From assembly GCA_963707955.1 (NCBI GenBank), contig OY970176.1:256001-320000 (forward strand): a DNA stretch of 64,000 bases, read 5' to 3'. Below the pieces are notes generated by a model. The model ran no database searches. It was not told the DNA's origin and saw nothing but the letters and a program-made list of their open reading frames with translations. The number at the start of each line of letters is the position of its first letter. The first letter of the stretch is position 1. This document shows, piece after piece, positions 28,628-43,400 of this stretch. Origin of the DNA: Candidatus Bathyarchaeota archaeon. GTDB lineage: Archaea > Thermoproteota > Bathyarchaeia > Bathyarchaeales > Bathycorpusculaceae. The position numbers and the translations under genes were made by a program.

Positions 28628-28642
28628 CTTAAGCCTTTTGGT
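28628..28642. repeat. Left att core CTTAAGCCTTTTGGT, overlaps putative ssb BRE/TATA
   Basis: Identical 15-mer at 40853-40867; both followed after 16 nt by TAAGTAC. Confidence 0.85.
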
Positions 28643-28691
28643 GCGTACTTTTTTTAGCTAAGTACCTACCTTTTCTGGTTCCCAGCCGCGG

Positions 28692-30131
28692 TTAGACTTT
28701 GATGCTGCTTCTGAGGGCTTTGGGCCTGCGGTAGTAGCTTATGACGGTTCCTGCGACTGTGCGTTCGTCGTATTTCTGAGCGCCCAGCATACCCATCTGC
28801 TTGATTTCCTCGTCTGTCGACGCGGTGAAAACGTCGTAGTCTTCGGGCCTTGTCAGCTTGATTCTTCTCACGTATTTCATCGTGCTGTTGATGTTTCGGT
28901 GTCTCAGTTTCTCTTTGACGATGAGCATGTTGCCGTTGAAAAGCCAGGCTAACTGTGTTCCAGCCCAATGTCGGAAGCTGACGAAGCTTACTTTGAGGAG
29001 CCTTGGGTTCTGAGTGCGCGCTGCTGCTCTTCTTCTCAGTTTAATGTAGATGCTCTGCATGTTGCGGTACGTTGTGGGGAAAACTTTGGTACTCGTCTTC
29101 GGAAGCGCGTCCAGCATGTTTAACAGTTTCGGGCTGACCTCAAACTCTCCTGCCAAGTGGTCTTTGACCGGATGGTTTATGGCTATGACGCCTCGTTTGG
29201 TGTCGACGTCTTCCCAGCCGATTCTGAGGACCTCCTCTGGATCTGCGAAGGTTTCTTTCAAGCTTTGCAGGTAGGCTCTGAGCCGCGCACTCGTCGTTGC
29301 CGATATCAACGTGTCAAGTTCGTCTTCTTGCGGCAGGAAGAAAATGAAGTCTTCTTGCCTGTACGAGGGCATAGTCCAGCTGAGACCCGCCATCCGCGTA
29401 AAAGCGTCGTAAGCGTACGCAGCCTGCATTTTGGTTCCGTCTTTCCACTTTTTCTTTGAGATTATGGCCTTGACCTTGTCCGGGTTGTAGATGTCGCAGC
29501 CTTCCGAGTTGAGCAGCATGCGTATGCACGTGGTATACTTGCAGTTGGCGCCGTAGCCTTCCTTGTCCAGGTAAAGAGCGTACTGCAGGAGAAGGCCCTT
29601 CTTGGCTTTCGCGTCTAACGTGCCCAGGTGTGCCTTGACTTCTTCTCTATCTCCACCAACAGTCTTCGTTTCTGTTGGAGTGCTCAAGTTTTTCGCCTCG
29701 ATTTCCTCGGCGCATACTCGGCCACTCAGATCTATAGTGCTCGTGCTTCTTAAGCTCAATCTCTCAAGGTTCTCAACATTCTCAACTGCTTGAGACGACG
29801 AATATTCAACCTTGGAAGGCTCAGAAAAGCGGTATCCGCAGAGTTTGCAGTAATATCGTTGAACCTGCTGCTTGACGCCTTCCCTGGACACGAAGCGGAA
29901 TCCGCTGTGAATGATTGCCTGGGACCCACATTCCGGACACCTGAGGGGCTGGTTTGGGAGCTGCTGCGGCTGGATCTCCTGGTCAAGACCCAACTTCCCA
30001 TTGGTTCGTCGCTTTGCCGAGGTGTAAGGTGAAAGTGAAAGAACAGCTTTTCCCCCAGCCCCGTTTTCATTCGTGTTCGTCGTCGTCATCGTCAGCCCTT
30101 CTAGGTCGAGCTCCTCGCGAGACAATACCAC
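28692..30131 (-). CDS. Tyrosine integrase with N-terminal Zn ribbon
   Basis: CPECGS..CKLCG; SFRHW, LRHRNINSTMKY; first Arg position reads ADPEE. Confidence 0.88.
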   Translation of the reverse strand: MVLSREELDLEGLTMTTTNTNENGAGGKAVLSLSPYTSAKRRTNGKLGLDQEIQPQQLPNQPLRCPECGSQAIIHSGFRFVSREGVKQQVQRYYCKLCGYRFSEPSKVEYSSSQAVENVENLERLSLRSTSTIDLSGRVCAEEIEAKNLSTPTETKTVGGDREEVKAHLGTLDAKAKKGLLLQYALYLDKEGYGANCKYTTCIRMLLNSEGCDIYNPDKVKAIISKKKWKDGTKMQAAYAYDAFTRMAGLSWTMPSYRQEDFIFFLPQEDELDTLISATTSARLRAYLQSLKETFADPEEVLRIGWEDVDTKRGVIAINHPVKDHLAGEFEVSPKLLNMLDALPKTSTKVFPTTYRNMQSIYIKLRRRAAARTQNPRLLKVSFVSFRHWAGTQLAWLFNGNMLIVKEKLRHRNINSTMKYVRRIKLTRPEDYDVFTASTDEEIKQMGMLGAQKYDERTVAGTVISYYRRPKALRSSIKV

Positions 30132-30406
30132 TCTTTGATGAGGGTCCAGCGGTCGCCACCGAATTCGTGCATAAGCAGGTTTCCTACTCCTCGATGCCAG
30201 CTAACTTCAGCGCTTACGAGGATGCCGACGACCTGGCCTGCCGGAGTTTCCACGATGCAATGATAATTCAGGAAGCGCCTCAGCATCGTCTGCGCCTCTG
30301 ATGGGCTAGCCACTTTTTCCCCTCGGTTTTGAGAATGAAATCTTGGCAGTAAGGGGCCCGCGACAAGCATCCACCGGCCATGCATGCTAACGCTCGCTTC
30401 AAGCAT
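30101..30406 (-). CDS. Small protein with possible Sm/LSm-like fold
   Basis: LRRFLNYHCIVETPAGQVVGILV..GNLLM resembles Sm1 motif. Confidence 0.5.
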   Translation of the reverse strand: MLEASVSMHGRWMLVAGPLLPRFHSQNRGEKVASPSEAQTMLRRFLNYHCIVETPAGQVVGILVSAEVSWHRGVGNLLMHEFGGDRWTLIKEWYCLARSST

Positions 30407-32255
30407 GCTGCTGCTCTCCTGCGATTAGCTTCTCAAGTTTGAGGCCGCAGTCTGAGCAGAGGAGTCCCCAGGATCCGTCGTGCTCTGTTACTTGCCACTC
30501 CATGTGAACCCTGCGACCGCAGGCCTGGCAGTTGTTCTCTCCAAAATCGCTCATCAGCCGTCCAAGCTTCTGCGTCTTAGAAGCTAGGTCCTGAAGTATT
30601 TGTGGAGAATGCAGATTTTGCACGCTTTTCTGATTATCTGTTTTTTCCTGCACGCTTTCAGCCGAGGGGCCTTCGTTTGGGCTTAGAACATTAACCGAGG
30701 AATCCTGATTTTCGTCTGAGAAGTGCCTAGTGTATATGGCTTCAGGCGTCGTCTCAGCATCATCGACCAAGTTTTCTCTGAGTAAAATTTTGTTTTCCTC
30801 GATTATCGATTGGGCCTCATTTAGCCAAGCTTTGAACGATTCGAGGCTGAAAAAAACAGATAAATCGTTTTGCGTGCATTCTCCGTTTTTTTCCTGAATC
30901 ACTTCAAGCAGGTTCTCCCGCTTGTCCGCTGGGTTAGGAATCTTCGACATGTAGCCGATCAAGCATAGAAAGTCAACCCAGTTGCGGATCGTGTCGCTGC
31001 TCTTGCGATCTGGAAACTTCGCGTTCCAAGAGTCAGTCAGGTCCTTGACAGTCAGCAGGGAATCCACCTTCTCCTTGGCCATTGGCTCAACGACTTCATG
31101 GAAGAATCGCAGGTGATGACTGGCAGCGCTTGTCTCCGTTGTCTCCCGGATCTCCTGCCAGAGGGCCAGGGTGTTATCATAATCTGTCTTCGTTGCCAGC
31201 ACATACGCGCGCTGCATGTCCTTCAGCTTCCTGACGAGAATGGGCCTCTGTGCAAGGTGAAACAACGCGCTAACCTGGATCAGGCCCAGCACGTGTTTGA
31301 AGTCTCTCATGGACCTTGGAAACCGTGCAGGAAACGTGTTCGCAAATGCTGCAGCATACGGAACGATGGCCTCGAGCTCCTGCACGTGAGCCTTGAAGTA
31401 TGCGATGTACGCCTCCAACAGAACGTCGTCCTGGTCCTTCTCAAACTTCCAGGGAAAAGCAGCCTTTGACCCCGTTAGTACGTTAGCATCTTTGAATTTG
31501 GCTTCCGTCGTCTCCGGCGTGAACGTGAAGCTCCTCGTAGCCAAGTCCTGGATGAACCTCTCGCTGGTACTGCAGAAAATCGTCGCAGGCCAACCTCGCA
31601 AAACAACATGCGTCGTCCGGAGGGCTCCCTTCTGACCTGTGTCCGTGAACTTGTAGCTGATCTCAAAAACGTCATGGCTTAGGACTGGCCGAAGCTTGTT
31701 GAATGTCTCGATGTTTGGCGCCTCGACGAACACGAGGATCCTGTCTTGGAGGTCGACGACGTAATGTGCGGTCTTGATTTTTTCCTTGAATTCCCGGTAC
31801 GCGTCTTTCTCTTCCTCTGTAGCGTCCTTGTCCGGCTTGGAAACGATTATGATAGGCTCGCCGTCCTCGTCGACGAGCAGGCCTCGATCGTGCACTAGGG
31901 CCGTAGGCGATAGGCCTCCCAAGAACCAGACGTCCTCTTTCGGAAAGTTTGTCAGGCTGTTGACGACAACGTATGTTTTTCCGATGCTGCTTTCACCTCG
32001 AAGAAAGAGGTTTAACGGCTCCTTCGTGTATGCGCTGAGGCCTGTTTTCAAGACCAGGTTGCTCGTCATCCTGTCGTGTTTCACTGTTCGCCCGATGTGC
32101 TGCATGAACTTGCTTTCCAGCTCTGGGTCAACGGCTAACACGTCGCCTGCTTTGAGTCCTCCGAGTTCCTTCAGTTTTTCAAGGTTGAAGAGAGAATCCG
32201 TCCGGCGCGCTAAGTCTTCCGGAACCGCAAAATCTTTATGCTGTTCGTGACTCAT
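30399..32255 (-). CDS. P-loop AAA+ replication ATPase/helicase (MCM-like) with C-terminal Zn finger
   Basis: GESSIGKT Walker A, ILVFVE Walker B-like, ATRS, PRSMRDF; CQAC..CSDC. Confidence 0.7.
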   Translation of the reverse strand: MSHEQHKDFAVPEDLARRTDSLFNLEKLKELGGLKAGDVLAVDPELESKFMQHIGRTVKHDRMTSNLVLKTGLSAYTKEPLNLFLRGESSIGKTYVVVNSLTNFPKEDVWFLGGLSPTALVHDRGLLVDEDGEPIIIVSKPDKDATEEEKDAYREFKEKIKTAHYVVDLQDRILVFVEAPNIETFNKLRPVLSHDVFEISYKFTDTGQKGALRTTHVVLRGWPATIFCSTSERFIQDLATRSFTFTPETTEAKFKDANVLTGSKAAFPWKFEKDQDDVLLEAYIAYFKAHVQELEAIVPYAAAFANTFPARFPRSMRDFKHVLGLIQVSALFHLAQRPILVRKLKDMQRAYVLATKTDYDNTLALWQEIRETTETSAASHHLRFFHEVVEPMAKEKVDSLLTVKDLTDSWNAKFPDRKSSDTIRNWVDFLCLIGYMSKIPNPADKRENLLEVIQEKNGECTQNDLSVFFSLESFKAWLNEAQSIIEENKILLRENLVDDAETTPEAIYTRHFSDENQDSSVNVLSPNEGPSAESVQEKTDNQKSVQNLHSPQILQDLASKTQKLGRLMSDFGENNCQACGRRVHMEWQVTEHDGSWGLLCSDCGLKLEKLIAGEQQHA

Positions 32256-32366
32256 GTTTGATTGCTCCTAGAGTTGTTCTGTGGGCGTGGGGGAGGCGAG
32301 GCTTCCAACGGAGAAGAAAACAAGTGAACTTCGCGCCTCCCAGGTTTCCACGCATTCCACGATGGT

Positions 32367-32717
32367 TCACTGCGCCTTTTTACGTCCGATTTTCGTTCCG
32401 TCAGTGAATTTCCACACGAAATAGGGCCCTACTCGCATTTTCCCCTTGTGCTCGGCGAGAATTCTCGTGAGCTCTTGGAACACGGGGTTTGTCGGGTCGT
32501 CAGCCTGCTCGTAGGGGCCCTTGGAGCCGTCGGCCGCCTGCCAGGGGATGCGTGACAGATCTAGTTCGCTCTTTCCTTTGGCTCCGGCAGCAGATCCTGC
32601 TGCAGGCTCTTTCTGCAATCCTTGAAGCTGGGCTACTTCATGCTTGACCTTGACAGCTGCTGCCTCGAGCGCGTCAGCCAGGTCGACGAGGATCTCGAGG
32701 GCTTTGTCGCTACTCAT
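32367..32717 (-). CDS. Hypothetical MGE protein
   Basis: ORF coupled to RHH gene; WQAADGSKGPYE. Confidence 0.7.
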   Translation of the reverse strand: MSSDKALEILVDLADALEAAAVKVKHEVAQLQGLQKEPAAGSAAGAKGKSELDLSRIPWQAADGSKGPYEQADDPTNPVFQELTRILAEHKGKMRVGPYFVWKFTDGTKIGRKKAQ

Positions 32718-32902
32718 GCCTTGGGGCCCTCCTGGAAGATTCTTTTGTATAAGTCAGGGGCGTCGCGTTGAATTTTCTCGCGGATAGCGTCGCGGATGAG
32801 ATCGCTCTCGTTCATGTGAGAGTCGAGCGCTACGAACTGTTCCATGAGCTTTTTCAGAGTGTGGGGAACGCGCGCGTTGATTCTAATTTCGTTTTCTGCC
32901 AT
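32714..32902 (-). CDS. Ribbon-helix-helix (CopG) regulator
   Basis: IRINARVPHTLKK..NESDLIRDAIREK. Confidence 0.85.
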   Translation of the reverse strand: MAENEIRINARVPHTLKKLMEQFVALDSHMNESDLIRDAIREKIQRDAPDLYKRIFQEGPKA

Positions 32903-32976
32903 ATGTATTTCCTTCGTACGACAAAGGTAAGTCATAAATACTTAAAACCTCTTAATTGAGGGTTAGGAGATTCTAC

Positions 32977-33603
32977 ATGGCAAAGCTCAAACTGTGGAAA
33001 ACGTTAGCAGAAGAAACGTTCAAGTGGATAGAAAATCAGAAAAAGTTGAAGAGGCCAGGAAGACGCGAAGAAGAAAGCGAAACAGAGGAGGGCAGGAGAA
33101 AGCAGCACTGGTACAAGATTCGAGAAACTGCTAAGGCAGAGATCCTCGATCTGAAGAGACTTGCTGACATTCTGCCTGAAGACCAGCTGCAGCAAATCTT
33201 CAATGAAAAAAACCTGTGCAGCCCAGACGAAAAAGGCAGACCAAGCCTCTTCCAGGTACTATTCAGCTTCTCCGAAGAGCATGGAGTACACGTTGGTACG
33301 TGGGTGGAAGACAAAGTAGTGAAAGGAGAGCAGAATAAGATTAGTTTGACGGCTGACGCCTTGAAGAGAAGGGTCCGGATCCTGGAACTATCACGCGCCA
33401 TCATAGAGATGCTCGACGGCGATATTCCTAATCTTTCTGGCCCGTTAGCACCAGCGTTTCACGACGTCACTCTCCGAGAAGGGGGAGCGCTACCACACCT
33501 ACGAGCAATTTACTATGCTTCACTCCGACAGGCTCAGGAAGAAGGCCTCGCTCAAGCAAGAAAGAGTTCCAAAGAGGCTCCGGCCTCCAGAGAACGTATC
33601 TAG
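32977..33603 (+). CDS. Hypothetical protein divergent from replication operon
   Basis: 209-aa ORF with AGGAG RBS. Confidence 0.7.
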   Translation: MAKLKLWKTLAEETFKWIENQKKLKRPGRREEESETEEGRRKQHWYKIRETAKAEILDLKRLADILPEDQLQQIFNEKNLCSPDEKGRPSLFQVLFSFSEEHGVHVGTWVEDKVVKGEQNKISLTADALKRRVRILELSRAIIEMLDGDIPNLSGPLAPAFHDVTLREGGALPHLRAIYYASLRQAQEEGLAQARKSSKEAPASRERI

Positions 33604-33910
33604 ACGTTCCCAGACCGTCTGCAGAGGCTTCCAGACCCTCTCCAGAGGGGGTTTCAACGCTTTTGGCAACATGAAAAAGGCGAATTTCAGAGCCCTCCGA
33701 TTCGAGGGATCCAGCCCTCGGAATAGGACCCAAAATCCTGAAAATTGACCCTTTCTGGTCAATCCGTGCACCTCTGAATCAGAGGTGGAAAGTTCAACAT
33801 TATGTCGCGCGACATAATGTTAGCTGGCTAAGCTGTCGATCGGGGGAGCCCCCTCGAAATCAGAGGTAGAGCATGCCGTAATCAGAGGGGGAACTTCGCG
33901 CTCGCGCTCT
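33587..33910. promoter_or_regulatory. Putative origin/recombination region: phased repeats and palindromes
   Basis: 21-bp tandem unit (33607-33648), CCTCTGAATCAGAGG palindrome (33771-33785), 26-bp palindrome (33796-33821). Confidence 0.6.
33796..33821. repeat. Perfect 26-bp palindrome AACATTATGTCGCGCGACATAATGTT
   Basis: Read directly from sequence. Confidence 0.95.
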
Positions 33911-34163
33911 TGAAACAGGGCTTCAATTCCAAAGCCTCGCGAAACAGTCGACACAGTAGTATCTGGTTCGCTGTGAGCCTTTCCCGTAATGTCCAAGATG
34001 GCGCCAAACCTGCTGTTTCATTTCCAGACTTCGTCCACATGACCGGCAGCTTGCGTCCTTTCGATGAAGAATGACAAGTGAGAAAGCGGGCAAGTCTAGG
34101 CCCTCAGACAGAAATAGAAGATAGTTCTATATGTCTTTTTCTGAACCTATAACAATCTTGCTT

Positions 34164-34394
34164 TCACTTCTGCAGCGTTCCGGTTCCTCTGCCGTCACTC
34201 AACACCTCTCCCTTCTCATAATCCGCTGCACAGGGGATGAAGACCTTGAAAACTTGACCTGCGCAAGCGGCGATATCAGAGGGGGAGAGAACGTTAACTG
34301 TCTCACCGCGCTGCCGGTCTGAAAAAGCACTTTCAAGGACCAGGCGTTTGATGAATCTCCTCTGTTGTGCTTCTTTGCTGTGTCGATTGACCAT
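34164..34394 (-). CDS. Hypothetical protein
   Basis: ORF in minus-strand operon; no motif. Confidence 0.35.
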   Translation of the reverse strand: MVNRHSKEAQQRRFIKRLVLESAFSDRQRGETVNVLSPSDIAACAGQVFKVFIPCAADYEKGEVLSDGRGTGTLQK

Positions 34395-34463
34395 TGAAGA
34401 AAAGCTTTCTGAGTTCTAGGAAGATAAGATTTGTCTACGAAGGCGTGTCAAAACGTGCCCATT

Positions 34464-34715
34464 CTAGAGATATCTTCTGCTCTTCAACTGGCTTCTAAGT
34501 TTTCCGTAGTCTTCAACGAACCTGCGCGCGCGGTCATAACGGTTTCGAAGCCTGAAGAGCATATTCCTGGCAGAGACGTATTCCATGTGTGTCTGCGATG
34601 CAGCATAACGGAGGGGACTAGTGTGCTTGTCCTTGATGGCTTGAAGCAGGACGTCGACTAACTGTTTCTCTCGCATGGTCAGTCCGACATGAGAACGCTC
34701 ACTCAAAATGTACAC
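34464..34715 (-). CDS. Small basic protein, possible HTH
   Basis: LTMREKQLV..LRYAASQTHM..SARNMLFRLR. Confidence 0.6.
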   Translation of the reverse strand: MYILSERSHVGLTMREKQLVDVLLQAIKDKHTSPLRYAASQTHMEYVSARNMLFRLRNRYDRARRFVEDYGKLRSQLKSRRYL

Positions 34716-34825
34716 CCCCTTTCTGCTCTCTAATTAAGGTGACAAGTACCTCGTTTGACGTTTGCATGTCACTCAAACAGAGAAACGTCCCCTCCTCTGA
34801 GTCGGGGTAGTAGGGGCAAACAGTC

Positions 34826-35599
34826 TCAGTTGATAGTAGCATGCTCTACCTCCATTTTGACTATTGGCTTGAAACGACAGCCGAGGGCGTACTCAGGGAC
34901 CGTCCCGGCGTACTTGCACACGTTGACGATGCTGCAGTCACTGCAAGGTCCAGAACATGCTTTTAATTTGCCCTCTGCTAAGGGCCCGTTCATGACTTCG
35001 TCGTATGCCGATTGAACGTCCTCGAAATAGACGAGCCTAGCCAGGTAGAACTGAGTGTACGCAAGGCTCTTATGGCGAAGGATCCTGCGGAGAACTTCAA
35101 GGCTTTTCCCGCTCTGATGCCACTCTGCAGCGAAGAAATGTCTCAAGATCCGAGGATTGAAATCGTCGACGCCAGCGTCTTTAGCTATCGTTCGCGCTCG
35201 GATCCAGACCGTCGCTGTGCGCAGGGGGTTTTCGCTGCGTATGTACTTCCAGCTTCTTTGCTGCCTGAAAACGTAACCCTCTGACCTTTTCCCAGCGAGG
35301 GCCCTGATGAACTCCAACGTCACCGGGTCCAACGGCAACGGATACAGCTTCTTCCGTTTGCTATCCAGAACCTGGAAGGTTCTGCTTTCAAAGTCAATGT
35401 TCTCTATTCTGAGGGTGCAGATCTCCCCGGTGCGAAGGCCTATCTTCATTGGCAATCGAATGAGCAGGTAATCCCTGGGTTCGCAGTTTGCCCGCGCGTA
35501 ATCGTGCACGCTGATGATGTCACTGCGTTTGATTATGAGAGTTTCCCGCGGCTCGCCTAGGGGCCCCTCTGAGTATTGCGGACTTGCATTCAAGGTCAT
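34826..35599 (-). CDS. Second tyrosine recombinase (catalytic domain) with Cys-rich tail
   Basis: GLRTGE, SKRK, PRILRHFFA, LRHKSLAYTQFY; CSGPCSDC..C..C. Confidence 0.9.
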   Translation of the reverse strand: MTLNASPQYSEGPLGEPRETLIIKRSDIISVHDYARANCEPRDYLLIRLPMKIGLRTGEICTLRIENIDFESRTFQVLDSKRKKLYPLPLDPVTLEFIRALAGKRSEGYVFRQQRSWKYIRSENPLRTATVWIRARTIAKDAGVDDFNPRILRHFFAAEWHQSGKSLEVLRRILRHKSLAYTQFYLARLVYFEDVQSAYDEVMNGPLAEGKLKACSGPCSDCSIVNVCKYAGTVPEYALGCRFKPIVKMEVEHATIN

Positions 35600-35850
35600 G
35601 TTTTCGGCGCCTCCGTTCTCGGCAGCTGCTCGAGCTCCGTCCTCGTCTGTCTGATCATCTCCTGGATTTCCTGCTCTAGCCCCTGGAGATGCTTGAGTTT
35701 TGTTTCCAGGGCCCTTCGCTGAGTCCTAAGCGTTCCAGCTCTGCCGAGGTAGACTTCAGACTTGTGGCCGCTGCCGTCGTAGGTCCAGAAGTACTTGTAC
35801 GTGTGGCCTTTAACCGTCTTGTCCAGGAAGCCGAAGGTAAACTGGGTCAC
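35596..35850 (-). CDS. Small DNA-binding protein, SSV1 D335-N/DUF6788-like, with coiled coil
   Basis: KTVKGHTYKYF...EVYLGR motif. Confidence 0.6.
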   Translation of the reverse strand: MTQFTFGFLDKTVKGHTYKYFWTYDGSGHKSEVYLGRAGTLRTQRRALETKLKHLQGLEQEIQEMIRQTRTELEQLPRTEAPKT

Positions 35851-36122
35851 TGCGTCACTTCTCCTCTGAGTGATGCCCGGAAGGCCCTCAGGTCCTCTCG
35901 TAGCTGCGCAGCCTCTGCGTCTTCGATCGTGATTTGACCTTTCAAGGTAAGCTTAGAGTTCATAACGCGCTGGGAACTTTGTCCTTTCACATGACCGCAC
36001 TTCGGGCACTTGAGGCCCTCCTCTGTCAGAGTCCACCTGTCCAGCTCTGAGGTGATTCTGCATGCCTCGCAGACCCTGCCGATGTACTTCGTCATGTTGA
36101 TTCTTCTCGTGTAAGTCCTCAT
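35847..36122 (-). CDS. Zn-finger protein
   Basis: CEAC...CPKCG. Confidence 0.7.
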   Translation of the reverse strand: MRTYTRRINMTKYIGRVCEACRITSELDRWTLTEEGLKCPKCGHVKGQSSQRVMNSKLTLKGQITIEDAEAAQLREDLRAFRASLRGEVTQ

Positions 36123-36270
36123 GAGTTATCCCCATTTAGGTATAATAGCTTAGCTGGATATAAAGGTTATCCCTGAATGTCGATAACCCTCTGACCATCA
36201 AACCGAGGAGCCTCCAACCCCCAGAATTCGTGTTTTCAGAGGAAAAGTAAGTACACATGTGCTCAGATCT

Positions 36271-36630
36271 CTAACTTCTGTAGGTTTCAATCGGAGGCGC
36301 CTCGCCAGTGCTGGTAGGGCCCCGGTTTGAATCAGGACCCCCCTCGGAAACTGGACTTTTCTGTCCGATTGTAAGCACTTCTCGTCTTCTGTTCTCCTGG
36401 TACTTTGACTTCTGTAGTGTGACCGTGCCCTTGCTCTTGGCCAGGTGCGCCTCGAGGAAGTCGCCTTCTTTCCAGCCGAGGGTGCAAAGCCATTTCTGGG
36501 GAAGAGTCACGGCCTCAGCGTTTCCGGACCTGCGGATCTTCACTGTCCGCCTCATGTCTATGTCTGCTAACAGTCGGTCCACGTTGGCGCCGTACTCTTT
36601 CTTGAAGAGTTTACTTAGCTCGCCCTTCAA
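36271..36630 (-). CDS. AbrB/MazE-type DNA-binding protein
   Basis: VKIRRSGNAEAVTLPQKW...GWKEGD; TTG start overlaps upstream stop. Confidence 0.8.
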   Translation of the reverse strand: MKGELSKLFKKEYGANVDRLLADIDMRRTVKIRRSGNAEAVTLPQKWLCTLGWKEGDFLEAHLAKSKGTVTLQKSKYQENRRREVLTIGQKSPVSEGGPDSNRGPTSTGEAPPIETYRS

Positions 36631-37028
36631 GTCTCCTGAGCCCCCTGCAGCTTCTTCGCTTCTTCCTCTGAGGTTTTCCTGAGTTTCCTCTGATCGACCT
36701 TGCTCAAAAGTGTCGCATTGATTACGTAGAGTTCTCCTTCGTTCCAGACCACTTGGTTCATCACCATATCTGTGTGCGTGACTTGGCATATCGCACGAGC
36801 CCGGAGGTATTTGCCAGTATCTACCGTACGAATCTGGCTGTACTTGCCTGACTTCTTAATATCAAACCAAAGCTTGTCGCCACGGCTGGCCCACATATTG
36901 AGTTTTTTCATGAGCTTAGAGATTTCCTCGTCTGAGCAGTGCTTCCCTATGGAGAACACGACGAAGCAACTTCTGGGAATCATCCCTTTTCTTGCCTTTA
37001 AGAACACCGGCTCCTGATTTGTTGACAA
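36627..37028 (-). CDS. Hypothetical protein, paralogous to C-terminus of 37031-37492
   Basis: IPRSCFVVF...GELYVINATLL vs IPRSAFILF...GEVILINETRL. Confidence 0.65.
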   Translation of the reverse strand: MSTNQEPVFLKARKGMIPRSCFVVFSIGKHCSDEEISKLMKKLNMWASRGDKLWFDIKKSGKYSQIRTVDTGKYLRARAICQVTHTDMVMNQVVWNEGELYVINATLLSKVDQRKLRKTSEEEAKKLQGAQET

Positions 37029-37030
37029 CT

Positions 37031-37492
37031 CTAGTGGGCCCCCTGCAGCTTCTCGACCTGCAGCCTGTCAAGCCTCGTCTCGTTGATCAGGATCACTTCC
37101 CCAGCTGAGCGCTCACCGGATGTCGACACGAAGATATCTTCGTGCTTGTGCGTCCATTCTTTGAGTTTGTCCCATTCGCCCGGAGGTAGAGTGAAGAGGA
37201 TGAAGGCGCTGCGAGGTATGTGGAACTCTCTATGTTCTACGAAGGGGTGCTTGGCCTTGGGGCCCGTCTTCTGGACAGCTGCGCGCATAAGATGGCTAAC
37301 TGCCTCTGATATCCCTCCTGGATAGTGCGGGTAGACAACGCGGTCCTGGAAGTCTTGAAGCAAGTCCTTTGAAACCGTGCAGCAGACCAGTGCCTCTCCT
37401 TTTAAACTGTTCTTCTCTGCTTCTTCAATGAGTCTGCGGGTTCCGGCTGCAACTTCATGTACGAGGTCGCTCTGACTTGTTTGTTTTTCCAA
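37031..37492 (-). CDS. Hypothetical protein with RHH-like segment
   Basis: VCCTVSKDLL..GISEAVSHLMR. Confidence 0.65.
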   Translation of the reverse strand: MEKQTSQSDLVHEVAAGTRRLIEEAEKNSLKGEALVCCTVSKDLLQDFQDRVVYPHYPGGISEAVSHLMRAAVQKTGPKAKHPFVEHREFHIPRSAFILFTLPPGEWDKLKEWTHKHEDIFVSTSGERSAGEVILINETRLDRLQVEKLQGAH

Positions 37493-37596
37493 CTCTTACA
37501 CGTCCCGCTTCTCATGTATCTGTGCAAATGCTATATAAGGCTTTACGAAGTATTACTAAGTTGCATAAAGTCTTAAAGAGTTATGGAGGTAGCAGA

Positions 37597-37773
37597 ATGG
37601 TGTTGGAAGTTTTGGAAATGGTGAGAGCCCGAGTTTTTGCCACGATCCGCGAGGACCTTCTCAGCTGGGTCGATGACCAGGTCAAGAGCGGGAGGTTCCG
37701 GAACCGGAGCCATGCGCTCGAGTATGGCTTGATCAAACTGCGAGAGTCAGATCAGAAACGCGGGGGGGAATAG
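37597..37773 (+). CDS. Ribbon-helix-helix regulator
   Basis: GGAGGT RBS; ATIREDLLSWVD..GRFRNRSHALE. Confidence 0.85.
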   Translation: MVLEVLEMVRARVFATIREDLLSWVDDQVKSGRFRNRSHALEYGLIKLRESDQKRGGE

Positions 37774-37778
37774 AAAGC

Positions 37779-38159
37779 ATGAGCAAGAACGAATTTACGA
37801 CAGTCTCAAAGTTGTGGGATCCACCTCGGCCGACGACGCTGCAACAGAGGTGGGAACGCTGGCTCAGGGACAACTCGTACGGCAACGGAAGCGAACATGC
37901 CAGAAGGTTCCCGGTTGATGGGACGGTCCGCTTCTTTTATGACCCGAATCCAGTGACTTTGAAGGTCGGCGACAACGTTGTCCTCGGCTTAGATGAGGCC
38001 GTGCAGCCTGTCCGACTCCTGGTTAATGCTACTTTCAACAAGGTCAGCGGCGACGGGGGCGTAAAAGTGACTGTTGAAAAGGCCACTTTGAAAGAGCTTG
38101 GGCTTGATGAAAAATCACTCAACATCCTCGTGCGACGGATTCTTGCAGGAGGTGACTAA
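37779..38159 (+). CDS. Hypothetical protein
   Basis: ORF in plus-strand operon. Confidence 0.65.
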   Translation: MSKNEFTTVSKLWDPPRPTTLQQRWERWLRDNSYGNGSEHARRFPVDGTVRFFYDPNPVTLKVGDNVVLGLDEAVQPVRLLVNATFNKVSGDGGVKVTVEKATLKELGLDEKSLNILVRRILAGGD

Positions 38160-38161
38160 GG

Positions 38162-38965
38162 ATGGTCAGTAAAGACTTTTCACTGAAGTTCGTAATCCCT
38201 TTCAACGCTGACAAGGTTGACTCACAGTTAGCCATCAGGGAGCGCCTTCTCAACATAGAAGGCGTCGCGATTGATACAAGCGTCAACGCGAACAAGTGGC
38301 AAATCCCGCCTGAGGACTTGGACTATTTCACGGCGACGTTGAAGGGGGCTCAGCTGCGCGTCGATCACGCTGAAAGCGCGCTTGCAGTCATCGGCATCGT
38401 GCCTGAAGCGAGGCGGGTTGGCAGCCAGGTTGTCTTTCGCGCAGAGATTGGCGACGCTGCATTAATAGAAAAAATCCTACGTGGCTACATCAGCAATGTG
38501 AGCGCACAAGTGGACTCTGATAACGTTGAATGCTCAAAGTGCTTGAAGCAAACGCGGAAAGAAGGCATGCTCATCCACCTCTGCCCGGGCGCTTGGGAAA
38601 TCGTCCATAAACCCAAAGTCAGAGAACTTAGTATCGTCGCCAGCCCGGCATATGAGAAGACGAAGTTCCTGCCAGTTGGCTTCGCGCAAGCTATGGATGC
38701 GTCGCAGTCGCAGAAGTTCAGTGCCGAAGTCGGCAATCCAATGCAGCCGTTGACGAAAGGGATTCTGGTTTTAAAGCTAAAACTGCTGACAAGGGAAGTG
38801 GAACGTCAAGACATAGCTGCAAGAATAGCTGCTATTGACTCTCAACTAGCTGAGTGGGATTTAGAGAGCACTGCTAAGCCACTGCATAAATATGAAGCTA
38901 AGAGACAGCAAAGACCTCAAACCTTCATGGACGAACTACACGCTGCAGTTAACACGCGACCGTAA
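38162..38965 (+). CDS. HK97-type prohead maturation protease with coiled-coil tail
   Basis: IEGVAI, LRVDH, IG.V, ISNVS, CSKC..H.C insert, RELSIVASPAY. Confidence 0.8.
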   Translation: MVSKDFSLKFVIPFNADKVDSQLAIRERLLNIEGVAIDTSVNANKWQIPPEDLDYFTATLKGAQLRVDHAESALAVIGIVPEARRVGSQVVFRAEIGDAALIEKILRGYISNVSAQVDSDNVECSKCLKQTRKEGMLIHLCPGAWEIVHKPKVRELSIVASPAYEKTKFLPVGFAQAMDASQSQKFSAEVGNPMQPLTKGILVLKLKLLTREVERQDIAARIAAIDSQLAEWDLESTAKPLHKYEAKRQQRPQTFMDELHAAVNTRP

Positions 38966-38992
38966 CTGACAGCATGCTTGGAGGTGAAAACT

Positions 38993-39118
38993 ATGTCAAA
39001 AAAGACTCATCGGTTTGATTGGGATGGTACGCCGAAAAAAGAGGAGCCGCTACAAGAATCCCTCGGTGGTCCCGGCGGCCCAGGCGTGTTCAACCGAAGC
39101 AAAAAGCGCAGGCAGTAG
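38993..39118 (+). CDS. 41-aa small basic protein
   Basis: GGAGGTGA RBS; MSKKTHRFDWDG...KKRRQ; absent from ORF track. Confidence 0.55.
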   Translation: MSKKTHRFDWDGTPKKEEPLQESLGGPGGPGVFNRSKKRRQ

Positions 39119-39128
39119 GTGAAGCTGG

Positions 39129-39437
39129 ATGTCAGAACAAAAGGTGTTCAACCCCAAAGAGTTCGCCAAGGAGAGCCAGGCACTGAAGGAGGTCTACGAT
39201 CCTGACATGGGCCTAATCAGGTATCGCCCTCTGCTCTTCAATGATTTGGCTGCACTTGAGAAGGCCGGAACAAAGGCAGAGAGAAGTCAGCTGGCACTTT
39301 TCACGATGCTGAAAGCTGGCTGTCTGGACTTGACTCTTGAGCAGGTGGGACAGTTTGAATTGAGGAAGGCTGCATTATTGCTCAAGCGCATAGCCGGAGA
39401 CCTGGTGCCCGCGCTGAGAGAATTCGGGTTGGAATAG
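39129..39437 (+). CDS. Putative tail assembly chaperone-like protein
   Basis: ~100 aa; IRYRPL..DL...LTLEQV..F pattern typical of siphovirus chaperones. Confidence 0.45.
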   Translation: MSEQKVFNPKEFAKESQALKEVYDPDMGLIRYRPLLFNDLAALEKAGTKAERSQLALFTMLKAGCLDLTLEQVGQFELRKAALLLKRIAGDLVPALREFGLE

Positions 39438-39446
39438 GCGAGAAAG

Positions 39447-40490
39447 ATGCTGTTATGTGAACCGGAAAGAAACCTGAGCGCTGAGCAGAGCCTCATTAAT
39501 GATACTAACTTGTACGGAGCTAACTCAACGTCGTTCGGGACGATCCATGACTATGGTAACATTACGGTTCCAGCTGGCGGAAGCTTAGTCGCCTTCAGTC
39601 TTGAAACCCTGCTTGCCCACATCAGCTTCATAAACGGGGCCGTCCTCGCCATCCAAGTTGGCAGTCTCAAATACGTCGCAGGCTACTATTACGACAACAA
39701 CGGCCCAGACGAGAAGCACCTCGGCGCGCTGATTTGGCTTTCAGCAGGAACCTACGATATCTCTGTCGTTGGTCTTGTTCCGGACATAACGGAAACCGTG
39801 GAAATATATAACATGAAGGTTGGCCTTGTCCAGTTCAACGATGTCCAGCCGTCAGCACTAGCATACTACACGGCAGCGACAAACTCGATACAGCTTACAG
39901 TTCCAAATCGGACGTTGCCAGTCGGAAGCTTGAACCAGGCAGTATTCGCCATTAACATCTGCACAAGCGGAACCCTAGGGTCAACATTCGTCTTGACTGT
40001 AGACGGCGTTGCTCACACTGATATGGATGAGTCAAGCTGGCTCGAATATCCAGGGATCCAGCAGGTTAATGGGTATGACATCTACAAGTTTTACATTCCA
40101 CTTTCAGTCGGAGTCCAGCACACGATCGGCATCGCACTTTCAGGCGGCGCCGTCGCTTACGCCTCCGTAATCGCGTGCCCATGGATATGCGCCCTCGCAG
40201 GAAGACGACACAACCCTCTCAAGCTGAGCTTCTCGCAGCTGAGCACTTTCTACGTTGACATTGGCAGTCTCTTCAATAATGGAGCAAAAAACTGCTACAT
40301 AGGCGCGCAAAAAGCCATTTCATACGGAGCAGCCGATTACGGTCCTACTGCATCGCAGACGAGTACTGGCGGGATGCTTTCCTTCAGCTACACCTTCACA
40401 GCCGTAAGCGTGTCAGCCTCTTCCTTCGTCGTAGACTCAAACAGTGTTCTCGGCAGCTGCATCGAAAACATCGCGGTGGACATTCAATAG
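39447..40490 (+). CDS. Beta-rich putative virion/tail or receptor-binding protein
   Basis: Ser/Thr/Gly/Tyr-rich, low charge, no signal peptide. Confidence 0.5.
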   Translation: MLLCEPERNLSAEQSLINDTNLYGANSTSFGTIHDYGNITVPAGGSLVAFSLETLLAHISFINGAVLAIQVGSLKYVAGYYYDNNGPDEKHLGALIWLSAGTYDISVVGLVPDITETVEIYNMKVGLVQFNDVQPSALAYYTAATNSIQLTVPNRTLPVGSLNQAVFAINICTSGTLGSTFVLTVDGVAHTDMDESSWLEYPGIQQVNGYDIYKFYIPLSVGVQHTIGIALSGGAVAYASVIACPWICALAGRRHNPLKLSFSQLSTFYVDIGSLFNNGAKNCYIGAQKAISYGAADYGPTASQTSTGGMLSFSYTFTAVSVSASSFVVDSNSVLGSCIENIAVDIQ

Positions 40491-40852
40491 GAAGCATGAA
40501 CAGAGGCGACCTAACGTCTAATCAGAGGGGGTTCTCCCTCGAATCAGAGGCGCGCCCTCGAATGTGAACTCAATCAGAGGACGAGTCCAATCGGAGGGGC
40601 CAAATGGGAAAATATAGGAAAGTATAGACTTTTGGGGTTAACTTCTGGGACTTCTGGTTCAAATGAACCGAAAGTTGAGCTCCCTCCGGAGGAGCTGTGA
40701 ATATTCCGCGCGGCATAGCTTGGATCTCAGTCAGGTCCTTCTAAGACGTCGACGACGTCGATGAGGGGGCCGGGTGAGCCTGTCAACGTTGAAAAACAGA
40801 AAAAAAGAGGGGTTGCGGTGGAGATGAGTGTTGTTGACTCCACTTGGGGTTG

Positions 40853-40867
40853 CTTAAGCCTTTTGGT
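40853..40867. repeat. Right att core CTTAAGCCTTTTGGT
   Basis: Identical to 28628-28642; adjacent to the 3' end of the second integrase remnant. Confidence 0.85.
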
Positions 40868-40897
40868 AGTGCAGTTTTGACTGTAAGTACTCCCTGT

Positions 40898-41600
40898 CTA
40901 CGCAAGGCTGACGAATCTCTTTGGTTTTCTGTAGAGGTGGATTCCGTTGAACTCGTCGTATTTTTCGAATCCTGCTTCTCCTAGCTTCTTGACTTCCTCT
41001 ACGGTTGTGGCTGCTGTCACGTCGTAGTCGCTGTCCTTGAACTCGATGAGCTGAGTGTATTTCATGGTGCTGTTGATGTTCTTGTGCCCTAGCAACTTCT
41101 TGACCAGGAGTATTTTGTTTGTGCGGAAATAGACCATTGTGGCTCCCCAATGCCTGAACGTGACTAGGCTGATCTTGAGGATCCTTGGATTGTTGAGTTT
41201 CGCAGCTATCCTCTCTCGCATGGTGAAGTAGCATCGAGCAAGCACCTGATACGTTGTCGGAAAGATCAACTCTGAAGTCTTCGGCAAAGCATTGAGCATC
41301 GAGCACAGATTATTGCTTACCTGTACCTGTCTCGGATAGTGTCCTTTGACAGGCCTGTTGATTGTTACGACGTTGCCGTTCAGGTCTATCCATCGTAGCC
41401 TTAAAGCTTCTGAGGGGTCAGCCATCGTTTCCTTTAAAGTTTGTAGGTAAGCCGTCATCCGTTTGCTGTTAGCCTCCAAGACCAGGGCATCAATTTCCTT
41501 CTCGTCAGGCATGAAGGGAAACGCTTCTTCTTGGCGGAATCTCGGGGAGTCCATGAGAGCTTCAACATCTTCGTCAAAGCGTCATAGGCGTAGGTCACCT
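40898..41600 (-). pseudogene. 5'-truncated, frameshifted paralog of the 28692 integrase
   Basis: ETMADPSE, TFRHW, LGHKNINSTMKY; upstream frame VTYAYDALTKMLKLSW matches AAYAYDAFTRMAGLSW; homology ends at GCGCGCGC 41601. Confidence 0.88.
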
Positions 41601-42174
41601 GCGCGCGCAATTGTTGGTGGTCACTCTAAAGGGATGATGATGAGAGCGCGCTAAGATTAGGTGATAGAATGAAAAAACCTTTAAGGTCGAAAGAAAGAAG
41701 ATTGAGATTATTGAATGGTAAGAATGTTAAAGCTGTTCTGTCTGATCGAACAAATGCTATCGGGACATTAAATCATGTTGGAAGAGGAATATGGAGTATT
41801 ACTGCAATAAAGAGTCTAAAACCTTACAAAAGGGAAAGTTAAGATGAGGTAGATTTGATGCACAGATTTCTTGTTCAAGGACTTTCAACTATTGCTTACT
41901 ACATTCGCTTCTCTTTTCCTAATGTTTCGTTTGCATTATTCCTTCTTGCGTATTCAATTATAAAGTTGACTTACATTAGCATAGACGGAACACGTTATCT
42001 AAGAACAGGTGTTTATTTCTTTCCTGATGTAATACCATTATCTGAAATGGAAGTGCTAGTTTTTTCTCGTGCTTCTTTCTCACGAAATTAGCGCGCGCTC
42101 GCGCTCCATCCAAAATACATGGTAGAAAAAGGGGAAGATGCAGGAAATATCGCCAGTTAGAATGAAAATGAGCT

Positions 42175-42268
42175 CGCGCGCAACGGCACCCATCTCAACG
42201 GCAAGCTTGGCAAAATTCTTCAAATCATCTTCAAACACCGTCTCACTATTCACGTTGCTTCTATCCAT
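42175..42268 (-). pseudogene. N-terminal fragment of a DUF2284-like protein
   Basis: DDLKNFAKLAVEMGAV then abrupt junction at CGCGCGC. Confidence 0.4.
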
Positions 42269-42283
42269 TTCTAGGCCTCATTT

Positions 42284-43159
42284 CTAAGACTCGGTGGTCA
42301 ACCCAAGCATCTTTGCTGTTGCATCCCACAAAGACTTCTGGGCTTGTTGGTCATAGGTTATGGGAGTCGTGCTTGTTTCCTTCAGTTTTGAGAAGCATTT
42401 TCCAGTCACACCTTCAACCTCATGCGATGATGCTAAATATACTGCGGTTTCGGCACCCTTCTTCGGAGAGATTAGAAAAGGTCGCATCATCATAAACATA
42501 AAAGATTGTATACGACTGCCACTATTCTTTCCGAGGTTAGTTGCAACCAAGCCCGGTTGAACTGCGTTAACAGTGACTCCAGTGCCTTGTAGACGCCTAG
42601 CCAATTCATATGTAAACATTATGAGCATCAGCTTTGCATTGGCGTACGAATTCGCACGCCGATAAGAAAATCCCCTATAATTCTTCTCATTCTGAAGATC
42701 GTCAAGATCAATCCTTCCTAATTTGTACAGTCCAGAAATTATGTTTATAATCCGAGACGGAGCACTGCTCTTCAACGAAGGTAACAGTTTGTGTGTGAGA
42801 AGAAATGGTCCGAGATAATCTACCGCCAATGTCAGCTCAAAACCATCAACTGAGGTTTGACGCTTGCTGAAAACAGCGCCAGCATTATTAATCAGTACAT
42901 CAAGTTTTTCATATTTTTCCGCAAACTCCTTTGCAAATTTTCGGATTGAACCTGCCGAGGACATATCACAAATCATCAAGACTGTCGATTGGGTACCAGT
43001 TTTATCAATTACCTCTTTCAAGGCTTTCTCACCACGTTCTTGGCTTCGCACGGTCATAACAACGGTTGCGTCCATGTTCGCCAAAGCCATAGCTGTTTCT
43101 TTACCCATTCCAGAGTTGCTGCCGGTTACAATACAGACCCTGCCTTTCATTTCGCTCAT
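42284..43159 (-). CDS. SDR oxidoreductase (retinol-DH-like), cargo
   Basis: TGSNSGMG, NNAG, YANAK, PGLVAT; AT-richer than the backbone. Confidence 0.9.
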   Translation of the reverse strand: MSEMKGRVCIVTGSNSGMGKETAMALANMDATVVMTVRSQERGEKALKEVIDKTGTQSTVLMICDMSSAGSIRKFAKEFAEKYEKLDVLINNAGAVFSKRQTSVDGFELTLAVDYLGPFLLTHKLLPSLKSSAPSRIINIISGLYKLGRIDLDDLQNEKNYRGFSYRRANSYANAKLMLIMFTYELARRLQGTGVTVNAVQPGLVATNLGKNSGSRIQSFMFMMMRPFLISPKKGAETAVYLASSHEVEGVTGKCFSKLKETSTTPITYDQQAQKSLWDATAKMLGLTTES

Positions 43160-43261
43160 TTTCGTTCCTCGCGACTAGCGCACACAGAGGTAGAAGCGCG
43201 CGCTATTAACCTTCAGCAGAGAAAAAAGGGAATTGTGCGGGAGACGTCTCAAATATTATAA

Positions 43262-43277
43262 CATAAGGCTTTTGGTG
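43262..43277. repeat. Third, degenerate att core CATAAGGCTTTTGGTG
   Basis: 14/16 identical to 28628-28643; next to a third integrase tail. Confidence 0.7.
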
Positions 43278-43298
43278 TGGATGTTCGATCTTTTGGTG

Positions 43299-43400
43299 TC
43301 ATATTTTGATGCTTCCGAACCTTTTGGGTCTCCTGTAGTAGCTGATGTGCGTCGCTCCAACGATGCGTTTATCGTATTTCTGGTATCCCTGCATGCCCAA
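43299..43400 (-). pseudogene. C-terminal 33-codon remnant of a third integrase paralog
   Basis: LGMQGYQKYDKRIVGATHISYYRRPKRFGSIKI* vs MGMLGAQKYDERTVAGTVISYYRRPKALRSSIKV*. Confidence 0.85.

Follow-up and report, generated by a model that had tools for sequence, protein, structure and literature searches.

A candidate satellite of tailed viruses in Bathyarchaeia: an integrative island carrying virus assembly genes in the same genome as a related provirus

Satellites shape the evolution of bacterial viruses, the movement of genes and host defence. Whether comparable elements exploit the tailed viruses of archaea is a question raised by an island of 12.2 kb in a closed Bathyarchaeia genome of 2,346,764 bp, which carries genes related to virus head and tail assembly and none for a capsid, a portal or a terminase. 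The island lies in the window C1:256001-320000, the stretch of 64,000 nucleotides (nt) analysed here, to which all positions refer unless they are prefixed by C1. Four of its genes are homologues of genes in a complete tailed provirus of the same genome, and the captured genes are intact, under constraint and set in a non-viral backbone. The island is best read, at a probability of roughly 0.4, as a satellite-like hitcher of the tailed virus family resident in that genome; this rating draws on one instance, known here through its genes. An earlier note on this DNA, made by a model from the letters and their reading frames, had proposed an archaeal satellite, and overall that interpretation finds partial support.

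Limits and operon of the island

The earlier note had described a fully bounded 12.2-kb element, and the limits of the island bear this out. An exact 15-mer, CTTAAGCCTTTTGGT, occurs at 28628 and 40853 with a spacing of 12,225 nt, and the pair is unique, there being no third exact copy in the 2.35-Mb genome. These direct repeats form attL (28628..28642, + strand) and attR (40853..40867, + strand), with an older island remnant beyond the latter. Both lie directly 3' of integrase coding sequence, which on the left is the full gene of 479 amino acids (aa) and on the right a 218-aa C-terminal fragment (40898-41554). An att-like copy with two mismatches is found at 43262, beside a third integrase fragment (43302-43400). 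Because the copies of the 15-mer each adjoin an integrase gene or fragment, the locus represents a tandem array at a single attachment site, headed by the intact island at 28643-40852. A 61-nt "repeat" of 74% identity was also considered as an attachment site and was rejected, being homology between integrase coding regions. The island agrees with one trait of the satellite class, that of a bounded integrative element of about 10-20 kb with an integrase.

The genes in question form a compact operon on the + strand. It opens with a ribbon-helix-helix (RHH) protein of 58 aa, similar to ParD and CopG (37597..37773; TIGR02606 2.3e-5, phrog_4738 0.0043). The next genes are ORF126 (37779..38159; 126 aa), an island-specific protein that belongs to a tiny family, and ORF267 (38162..38965; 267 aa), which resembles prohead proteases. 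The apparent gap of 163 nt that follows is filled by an open reading frame (ORF) of 41 aa (38993..39118), which fell below the length cut-off of the ORF list and has a strong GGAGGTGA ribosome-binding site and a basic C-terminus. The operon ends with ORF102 (39129..39437; 102 aa), a shortened homologue of a gene that precedes the tape measure in viruses, and ORF347 (39447..40490; 347 aa), a full-length homologue of the gene that follows it. All frames are open and the spacers between them measure 2 to 27 nt, as expected from the earlier description of a compact and intact operon. The good ribosome-binding sites described with it are present for most genes, GGAGGT preceding the RHH gene and GGAGGTGA or AGGTGA preceding ORF267, the 41-aa ORF and ORF102; the site of ORF347 is weak. 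Positions 38219-40506 are reproduced unchanged in Logan contigs of four runs, all from one study, one of which is possibly the source of the assembly.

No gene for a major capsid protein (MCP), portal or terminase was recognised between the attachment sites, where the earlier note had also seen none. None of the 19 island ORFs matches a Pfam or PHROG family of these kinds or any capsid family, and tblastn with the large terminase subunit (TerL), portal, MCP, neck, tube and tape measure proteins of the resident provirus returns nothing in the island at E<=1. Likewise, tblastn with provirus proteins gives no sign of pseudogenes left from the roughly 20 virus genes that are missing. The island therefore shows a second trait of the satellite class, a partial set of virion genes that includes morphogenesis genes related to those of a helper.

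Virus-related genes and the resident provirus

The candidate helper is a provirus with a complete head-tail gene set at C1:2054289-2076920, which holds one paralogue each of ORF267 and ORF347, 1.77 Mb from the island. Its gene order begins with an 83-aa gene (p83), a 117-aa gene (p117), TerL (phrog_2, 1.9e-38), the portal (PF04860, 1.2e-14), a Mu-F-like piece and several small genes. A 389-aa homologue of ORF267 (P0015), a 128-aa cement- or scaffold-like gene, the MCP (Phage_capsid_4, 2.4e-10) and a Neck1-type gene follow. The last part comprises a 154-aa gene, the tape measure (phrog_58, 5.5e-18), a 344-aa homologue of ORF347, further tail genes and an ABC-ATPase/GNAT gene. A compatible helper in the same host, a further trait of satellites, is thus represented by a complete head-tail provirus, and the search for a resident provirus with a homologous protease, which the earlier note had suggested, yielded the 344-aa tail gene as well.

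Several features of the provirus and its family were recorded in passing. Its left flank begins directly after host genes similar to purE, purC and purP, the purine genes ending at C1:2049686. A conserved 483-aa protein, in which an ABC-type ATPase is joined to a GNAT acetyltransferase region (C1:2075469-2076920), closes the structural module and is 57-94% identical across many proviruses. Decaying copies of the provirus family occur in several Bathyarchaeia genomes (loci L059, L083, L084 and L086), with frameshifted portal, MCP or protease genes.

Four island genes, ORF267, ORF102, ORF347 and a 76-aa gene, are homologues of genes of this provirus. ORF267 is 71% identical over residues 6-187 to the gene in the protease slot of the provirus. 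It consists of an N-terminal domain (residues 1-182) with a CxxC...HxC insertion, a short linker and a degenerate C-terminal tail motif. Across the family, which has 358 members at E<=1e-3, the N-terminal domain is highly conserved, with 55 invariant columns, and gives way to a variable linker of coiled-coil character. The C-terminal region has PDB profile matches only to coiled-coil chains, and a coiled coil at about residues 200-245 of ORF267 is plausible. Most members end in a tail of the form WFKDxLKAxxxLxGxK, of which the end of ORF267, TFMDELHAAV, is a degenerate version. Its linker is some 100-150 aa shorter than that of most virus copies, which measure 375-420 aa.

Gene position places this family between the portal and the MCP, neither of which neighbours ORF267 itself. 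The MCP follows the protease-slot gene at 26 of 29 genome loci (one of the others is too short and two are decayed fragments) and at 76 of 80 IMG/VR loci, the remaining four having too little downstream DNA. ORF267 has no Pfam or PHROG match at E<=0.1. Three remote homologues from genome G215, with 22-24% identity, match Peptidase_S78 at E 0.016 (15.8 bits against a cut-off of 21) and phrog_7015, "head maturation protease", at 3.3e-4, 0.0062 and 0.013. In language-model features, the domain of ORF267 lies nearest to clusters that carry S78, S78_2 and S77, with scores of 0.93-0.95. Across 82 homologues, and in the three remote ones as well, residues H69, S114 and H149 do not vary. A His-Ser-His pattern is typical of assemblin-like proteases, and the C-terminus of the HK97 protease directs that enzyme into the procapsid. 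Because of the matches of the G215 homologues, the language-model neighbours and the three invariant residues, ORF267 is termed prohead-protease-like here. The histidine and serine motifs pointed out in the earlier note are present, and as catalytic residues they are putative.

The two tail-related genes flank a tape measure in viruses. ORF102 matches residues 27-115 of the 154-aa provirus gene with 27% identity (E 3e-6) and is 40-44% identical to its counterparts in other proviruses and viruses. In the resident provirus and at many other loci its homologues immediately precede the tape measure, and ORF102 itself has no tape measure neighbour. Neither ORF102 nor the 154-aa gene matches a Pfam or PHROG family, and the chaperone-like nature that the earlier note gave to ORF102 agrees with its position. 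ORF347 is 69-71% identical to the 344-aa tail gene of the provirus over its full length. A tape measure lies upstream of its relatives at 18 of 25 metagenome loci (the other seven have less than 1.1 kb of upstream DNA), at 10 of 19 genome loci within the 1.5 kb upstream that was examined, and at all six IMG/VR loci. No Pfam, PHROG or PDB sequence match was found for ORF347, Dit and hub families included, and its language-model leads reach only 0.85-0.86. A PDB sequence search with profiles of ORF267 and ORF347 returned coiled-coil or chance matches only. "Tail assembly chaperone" for ORF102 and "distal tail" or "hub" for ORF347 are accordingly names suggested by gene position.

The fourth homologue lies outside the operon. 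This 76-aa gene (34164..34394, - strand) corresponds to p83, the first gene of the late operon, with 39% identity; it matches no Pfam family and keeps the invariant EKGEVLxDxRGxG motif of the family in an alignment of 17 sequences. ORF126, in turn, has a tiny family, with eight matches among 1.84 billion representatives. Its relatives in other samples are 48-52% identical, and its C-terminus, VEKATLKELGLDEK, is strongly conserved among them. When the ORF126 family was compared by hhalign with 38 virus and island gene families, the best probability was 7.6%, and no virus gene was recognised as a relative.

The history of these genes was approached through trees and substitution rates. In a tree of 57 sequences ORF347 is sister to the gene of the resident provirus (support 0.88), and the N-terminal domain of ORF267 groups with the short forms P0038, P0046 and P0023 (support 0.87), not with the provirus. 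DNA similarity to the provirus extends from 14 nt before the start codon of ORF347 to its stop codon. Capture therefore appears to have been mosaic and gene-precise. Between ORF347 and the provirus copy the nonsynonymous rate (dN) is 0.213, the synonymous rate (dS) 1.337 and dN/dS 0.16, with no stop codons; neutral drift of one copy over half the divergence would push the ratio towards 0.5. The protease domain compared with its provirus copy gives a dN of 0.27 with saturated dS, again with no stops. The captured genes are thus intact and under constraint, the outcome of the dN/dS check that had been proposed for them.

Four findings speak against a simple deletion derivative or decayed provirus: the backbone is non-viral, the three genes have different nearest relatives, capture was gene-precise and left no remnants of the missing genes in the tblastn search, and the genes are constrained. 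The earlier note held its interpretation refuted if close relatives contained a full head-tail module. For the single genes this is what is observed, and at that level it counts against the note, although the findings just given disfavour simple deletion.

The island backbone

The remainder of the island resembles a plasmid more than a virus. At its left end, the intact tyrosine integrase of 479 aa (28692..30131, - strand; Pfam Phage_integrase 1e-7, phrog_1 1.3e-12) has an N-terminal zinc-ribbon region. It is followed by a 618-aa protein (30399..32255, - strand) that combines a P-loop (GESSIGKTY), a MarR-like winged helix and a C-terminal zinc ribbon. The winged helix is recognised by a PDB profile match to MarR (E 6.5e-4), and the protein matches no Pfam or other known family; it is a putative replication or maintenance protein. 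A 116-aa gene (32367..32717, - strand) is kept beside the 618-aa gene in related islands (L126 and L127). Two non-coding, iteron-like clusters were found on the + strand, one with three AATCAGAGG repeats (33777..33888) and one with three AATCAGAGG repeats plus AATCGGAGG (40520..40597). Clusters of three to four direct AATCAGAGG repeats occur only at these two island sites in the whole genome, the provirus having none, and they are candidate iterons or protein-binding arrays. Further genes encode a second tyrosine recombinase, XerA-like and 257 aa long (34826..35599, - strand; Pfam Phage_integrase 3e-22, NCBIfam XerA 2.1e-24 and below its cut-off), and a DNA-binding protein of the AbrB/MazE fold with 172 aa (36271..36789, - strand; PF04014 1.3e-4, TIGR02609 4e-7). 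Small RHH, AbrB and zinc-ribbon proteins are among the remaining content.

This backbone recurs widely. Members of the 618-aa family, adjacent to an integrase, were found in 86 of the 401 genomes sampled from the order, and the protein has no match in IMG/VR. The 618-aa gene is retained in six related islands, where it adjoins the integrase in four, and none of the six contains a homologue of ORF126, ORF267, ORF102 or ORF347. The five closest genomes have no protease relatives or have them on other contigs, and ORF126 was not found in them. Taken together, the gene content points to a common, plasmid-like and non-viral integrative family that ordinarily lacks such virus genes.

Two observations concern exchange between this family and viruses. 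In a related island of genome G215 (L125:3504-3761, contig C55), a homologue of p117 (38% identity, E 1.4e-16) lies between the 618-aa gene and the integrase, and it represents a second, independent capture of a late-operon gene of a virus by the backbone family. In the IMG/VR contig L155 (13248-14192), an integrase of the island type stands directly after the 163-aa gene of a tail module, where the next tail genes would be expected. The island type of integrase thus does occur inside virus tail modules.

The surroundings of the island were also inspected. Beyond attR (40868-43400) the GC content is lower (0.43-0.47) and remnants of older islands are found, among them an intact ORF similar to short-chain dehydrogenases (42284-43159). 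Three 1-nt differences from the Logan contigs, all outside the operon, are located at 33701 and 43610 (four runs) and at 33841 (runs X1 and X3). They are likely assembly errors, so that genes called nearby need caution, as perhaps does the tape measure of the provirus, which is split. After correction of the indels at 33701 and 33841, no convincing gene was found in the region from 33.6 to 34.1 kb. One contig of run X3 matches through the end of attL and diverges at 28643 into 64 nt absent from the genome, which may mean that in a related strain this attachment site is empty or holds something else. Finally, a CRISPR search returned a single candidate with four repeats in the whole genome.

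Competing explanations and known satellites

In the proposed scheme, a plasmid-like integrative element has captured variant copies of four tailed-virus genes and maintains them under selection. When the late programme of a helper virus runs, the island would supply three parts. The first would be a prohead-protease/scaffold variant with a short linker, in which catalytic-looking residues and a degenerate tail are kept; the second, a truncated version of the gene that occupies the tail-chaperone slot; and the third, the island's version of the tail gene that comes after the tape measure. These parts, along with the products of ORF126 and the 41-aa ORF, may enter or redirect the assembly of helper heads and tails. 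The functional steps would be incorporation, size redirection, formation of chimeric tails and packaging. The short-linker protease/scaffold may become part of helper procapsids and perhaps bring about a smaller shell, the island measuring 12.2 kb versus 23.6-38.3 kb for IMG/VR contigs of helper relatives. The chaperone-slot protein and the island's post-tape-measure tail protein would give rise to chimeric tails, and the island would travel in particles that the helper builds and that are chimeric in part, which would cost the helper something. It is only tentatively suggested that this would be the first satellite of a tailed archaeal virus, with a kit drawn from at least two virus donors and leading to partly chimeric, possibly smaller particles that carry the 12.2-kb island.

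Several results weigh against a satellite-like hitcher. No integrase, replication gene or flanking repeat of at least 14 nt was recognised in the provirus, which may not be inducible because no integrase or attachment site was found. Provirus and island share no DNA outside two coding matches, and none that is non-coding; no small terminase subunit (TerS) is recognisable in the island, and hence no common pac or cos site is visible. Sequencing depth is the same in the island and its flanks (31.3 vs 31.2 in run X1, from Logan contigs), and no joint indicative of excision or of a circle is seen in Logan contigs of the four runs, which cannot exclude rare forms. Wherever enough flanking DNA was available, relatives of ORF267 or ORF347 were without exception located in a full head or tail module. 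"Protease", "chaperone" and "distal tail" are names that derive from gene position, weak transitive profile matches and language-model features, and none of 82 members of the ORF267 family matches Peptidase_S78 at E<=1.

A second instance was also sought, as recurrence of a family with the same hijacking module is characteristic of satellites. The four-gene arrangement was seen at none of 109 protease loci (29 from genomes and 80 from IMG/VR) and at none of 50 ORF347 loci from metagenomes, genomes and IMG/VR. ORF126 was found in none of 400 other genomes of the order and on no IMG/VR contig, in protein and alignment searches. In these sets, the same gene set that the earlier note had expected in other genomes and viromes was not encountered, nor was recurrence of the island as a family. 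There is one hint of a second instance: for P0150, a relative of ORF126 with 52% identity, and P0013, a short protease of 273 aa, the longest contig is 13,560 bp in both cases, and this equal figure is the sole basis of the hint.

Of the rival explanations, the one that survives best holds that the island is an inert recombinant between a provirus and an integrative element, formed at an integration hot spot with two decayed islands and carrying passenger virus genes that have no present function. The setting is suitable for such an event, with a tandem array containing the integrase fragments at 40898-41554 and 43302-43400, and decaying proviruses of the family are common. The order of ORF267, ORF102 and ORF347 is colinear with the virus, the module was unseen elsewhere in the searched loci, and the L155 contig shows that junctions between such integrases and virus tail modules arise. 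Other observations speak against it. The five operon ORFs are all intact, closely spaced and equipped with ribosome-binding sites, and dN/dS is 0.16 with dS above 1. Moreover, the three genes have three different nearest relatives, ORF267 groups with other short forms that have diverged, conservation of ORF126 extends to other samples (48-52% identity), and remnants of the roughly 20 missing virus genes are lacking. An inert origin is on this evidence unlikely, though it deserves to be taken seriously.

A second explanation retains a function for the genes and dispenses with packaging. The element would never be packaged, and its variant parts would act as dominant-negative decoys that poison head and tail assembly of incoming related viruses, to the benefit of the host population. 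In two of the three captured genes the truncation is such that one interaction region is kept and another dropped: ORF102 covers residues 27-115 of the 154-aa gene, and ORF267 is without most of the linker. No packaging signal or terminase gene is visible and there is no extra copy number. Bacterial mobile elements also encode blockers of tail assembly, namely Tai (PMC11364771) and Rta of PLE11 (PMC12987554). On the other hand, decoys of this kind would poison the resident provirus of the same family too, although the closest known relative of ORF347 is a gene of that provirus. PADLOC defence models match none of 17 island proteins, and the known interference genes of satellites mostly accompany piracy. 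ORF347, furthermore, is full length and constrained and resembles a working structural gene. Interference alone is consequently a rather improbable account. That the island is a self-sufficient miniature virus, with ORF347 or ORF126, for example, as its capsid protein, is very hard to credit: these two and several leftward genes do lack a family, but relatives of ORF347 follow the tape measure in viruses that have an HK97-type MCP of their own, and the island has neither portal nor terminase.

If the island is a satellite-like hitcher, PLE of the Vibrio cholerae phage ICP1 is the closest worked example for the chimeric tails proposed here. PLE encodes its own tail assembly chaperone, tape measure and baseplate hub, which are 20-41% identical to those of the helper, and gives rise to chimeric tails; it also remodels capsids (Mathur et al., Nature 2026, PMC12987554). 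As far as the available part of that article describes it, PLE is likewise an integrative island of similar size without a capsid, portal or large terminase subunit of its own. Both elements have a partial tail pathway, chaperone and hub, that has diverged from the helper, by the identities just given in PLE and to 27% and 70% here. In contrast to the island, PLE has its own tape measure, no homologue of the protease/scaffold is described for it in that text, and it depends on a virulent myovirus that infects a bacterium. For PLE, transduction and chimeric tails are experimental findings, whereas the island is known from genes alone.

Bacterial satellites that redirect capsid size offer a second comparison. 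P4, SaPI and PICI elements, through Sid, CpmA/B or Ccm, and the cfPICI elements resemble the island in having an integrase, a regulator module and a variant of a head-assembly gene, and a serine protease module is present in cfPICI and some PICI, according to the available text of the census of bacterial satellites (de Sousa et al., 2023, PMC10085698). The ratio of element to helper is also comparable, the island being about one third to one half of the size of helper relatives (12.2 vs 23.6-38.3 kb). Nevertheless, there is no sequence relation to P4, SaPI, PICI or cfPICI, and Sid, Psu, Cpm, TerS and AlpA do not occur in the island. Unlike the island, which has tail genes and no capsid, cfPICI are described there as encoding a whole capsid and no tail genes. 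Archaea are mentioned zero times in the same available text.

Among archaea, pSSVx and pSSVi were the sole satellites described before the report of Zhou et al. (10.1101/2025.02.15.638363), judging from its available part, which adds small circles that are satellites of spindle-shaped viruses. Together with SRCE, these elements share with the island a plasmid-type archaeal replicon joined to only part of the morphogenesis genes of a helper. They differ from it in that their helpers are spindle-shaped, their captured genes are an MCP and an AAA+ ATPase, and they are small circles of 2.7-9 kb, none of which is tied in that part of the report to a tailed (Caudoviricetes) virus. The head-tailed Fuxiviridae and Kunpengviridae of Bathyarchaeia are complete viruses and the probable kind of donor and helper (Duan et al., 2024, PMC10848311); the words "satellite", "protease" and "scaffold" do not occur in the available text of that article. 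In two further papers (PMC13573593, PMC12934983), satellites appear only in the reference lists. Literature searches, with supplements outside their scope, did not reveal any satellite of a tailed virus from archaea, and an element of this kind may so far be undescribed for the tailed viruses of archaea.

Bathyarchaeia are among the most abundant archaea of sediments, and to our knowledge no cultured virus-host system exists for them. If the proposed reading is true, the genome provides a defined island and helper provirus pair in one closed sequence. Under the interference explanation, the island would instead hold the first assembly-decoy cargo in an archaeal mobile element. As a satellite-like hitcher, it would mean that archaea saw an independent origin of piracy directed at HK97-type head assembly and at tail assembly, and the island would unite in one archaeal element what P4-type capsid redirection and PLE-type chimeric tails represent in bacteria.

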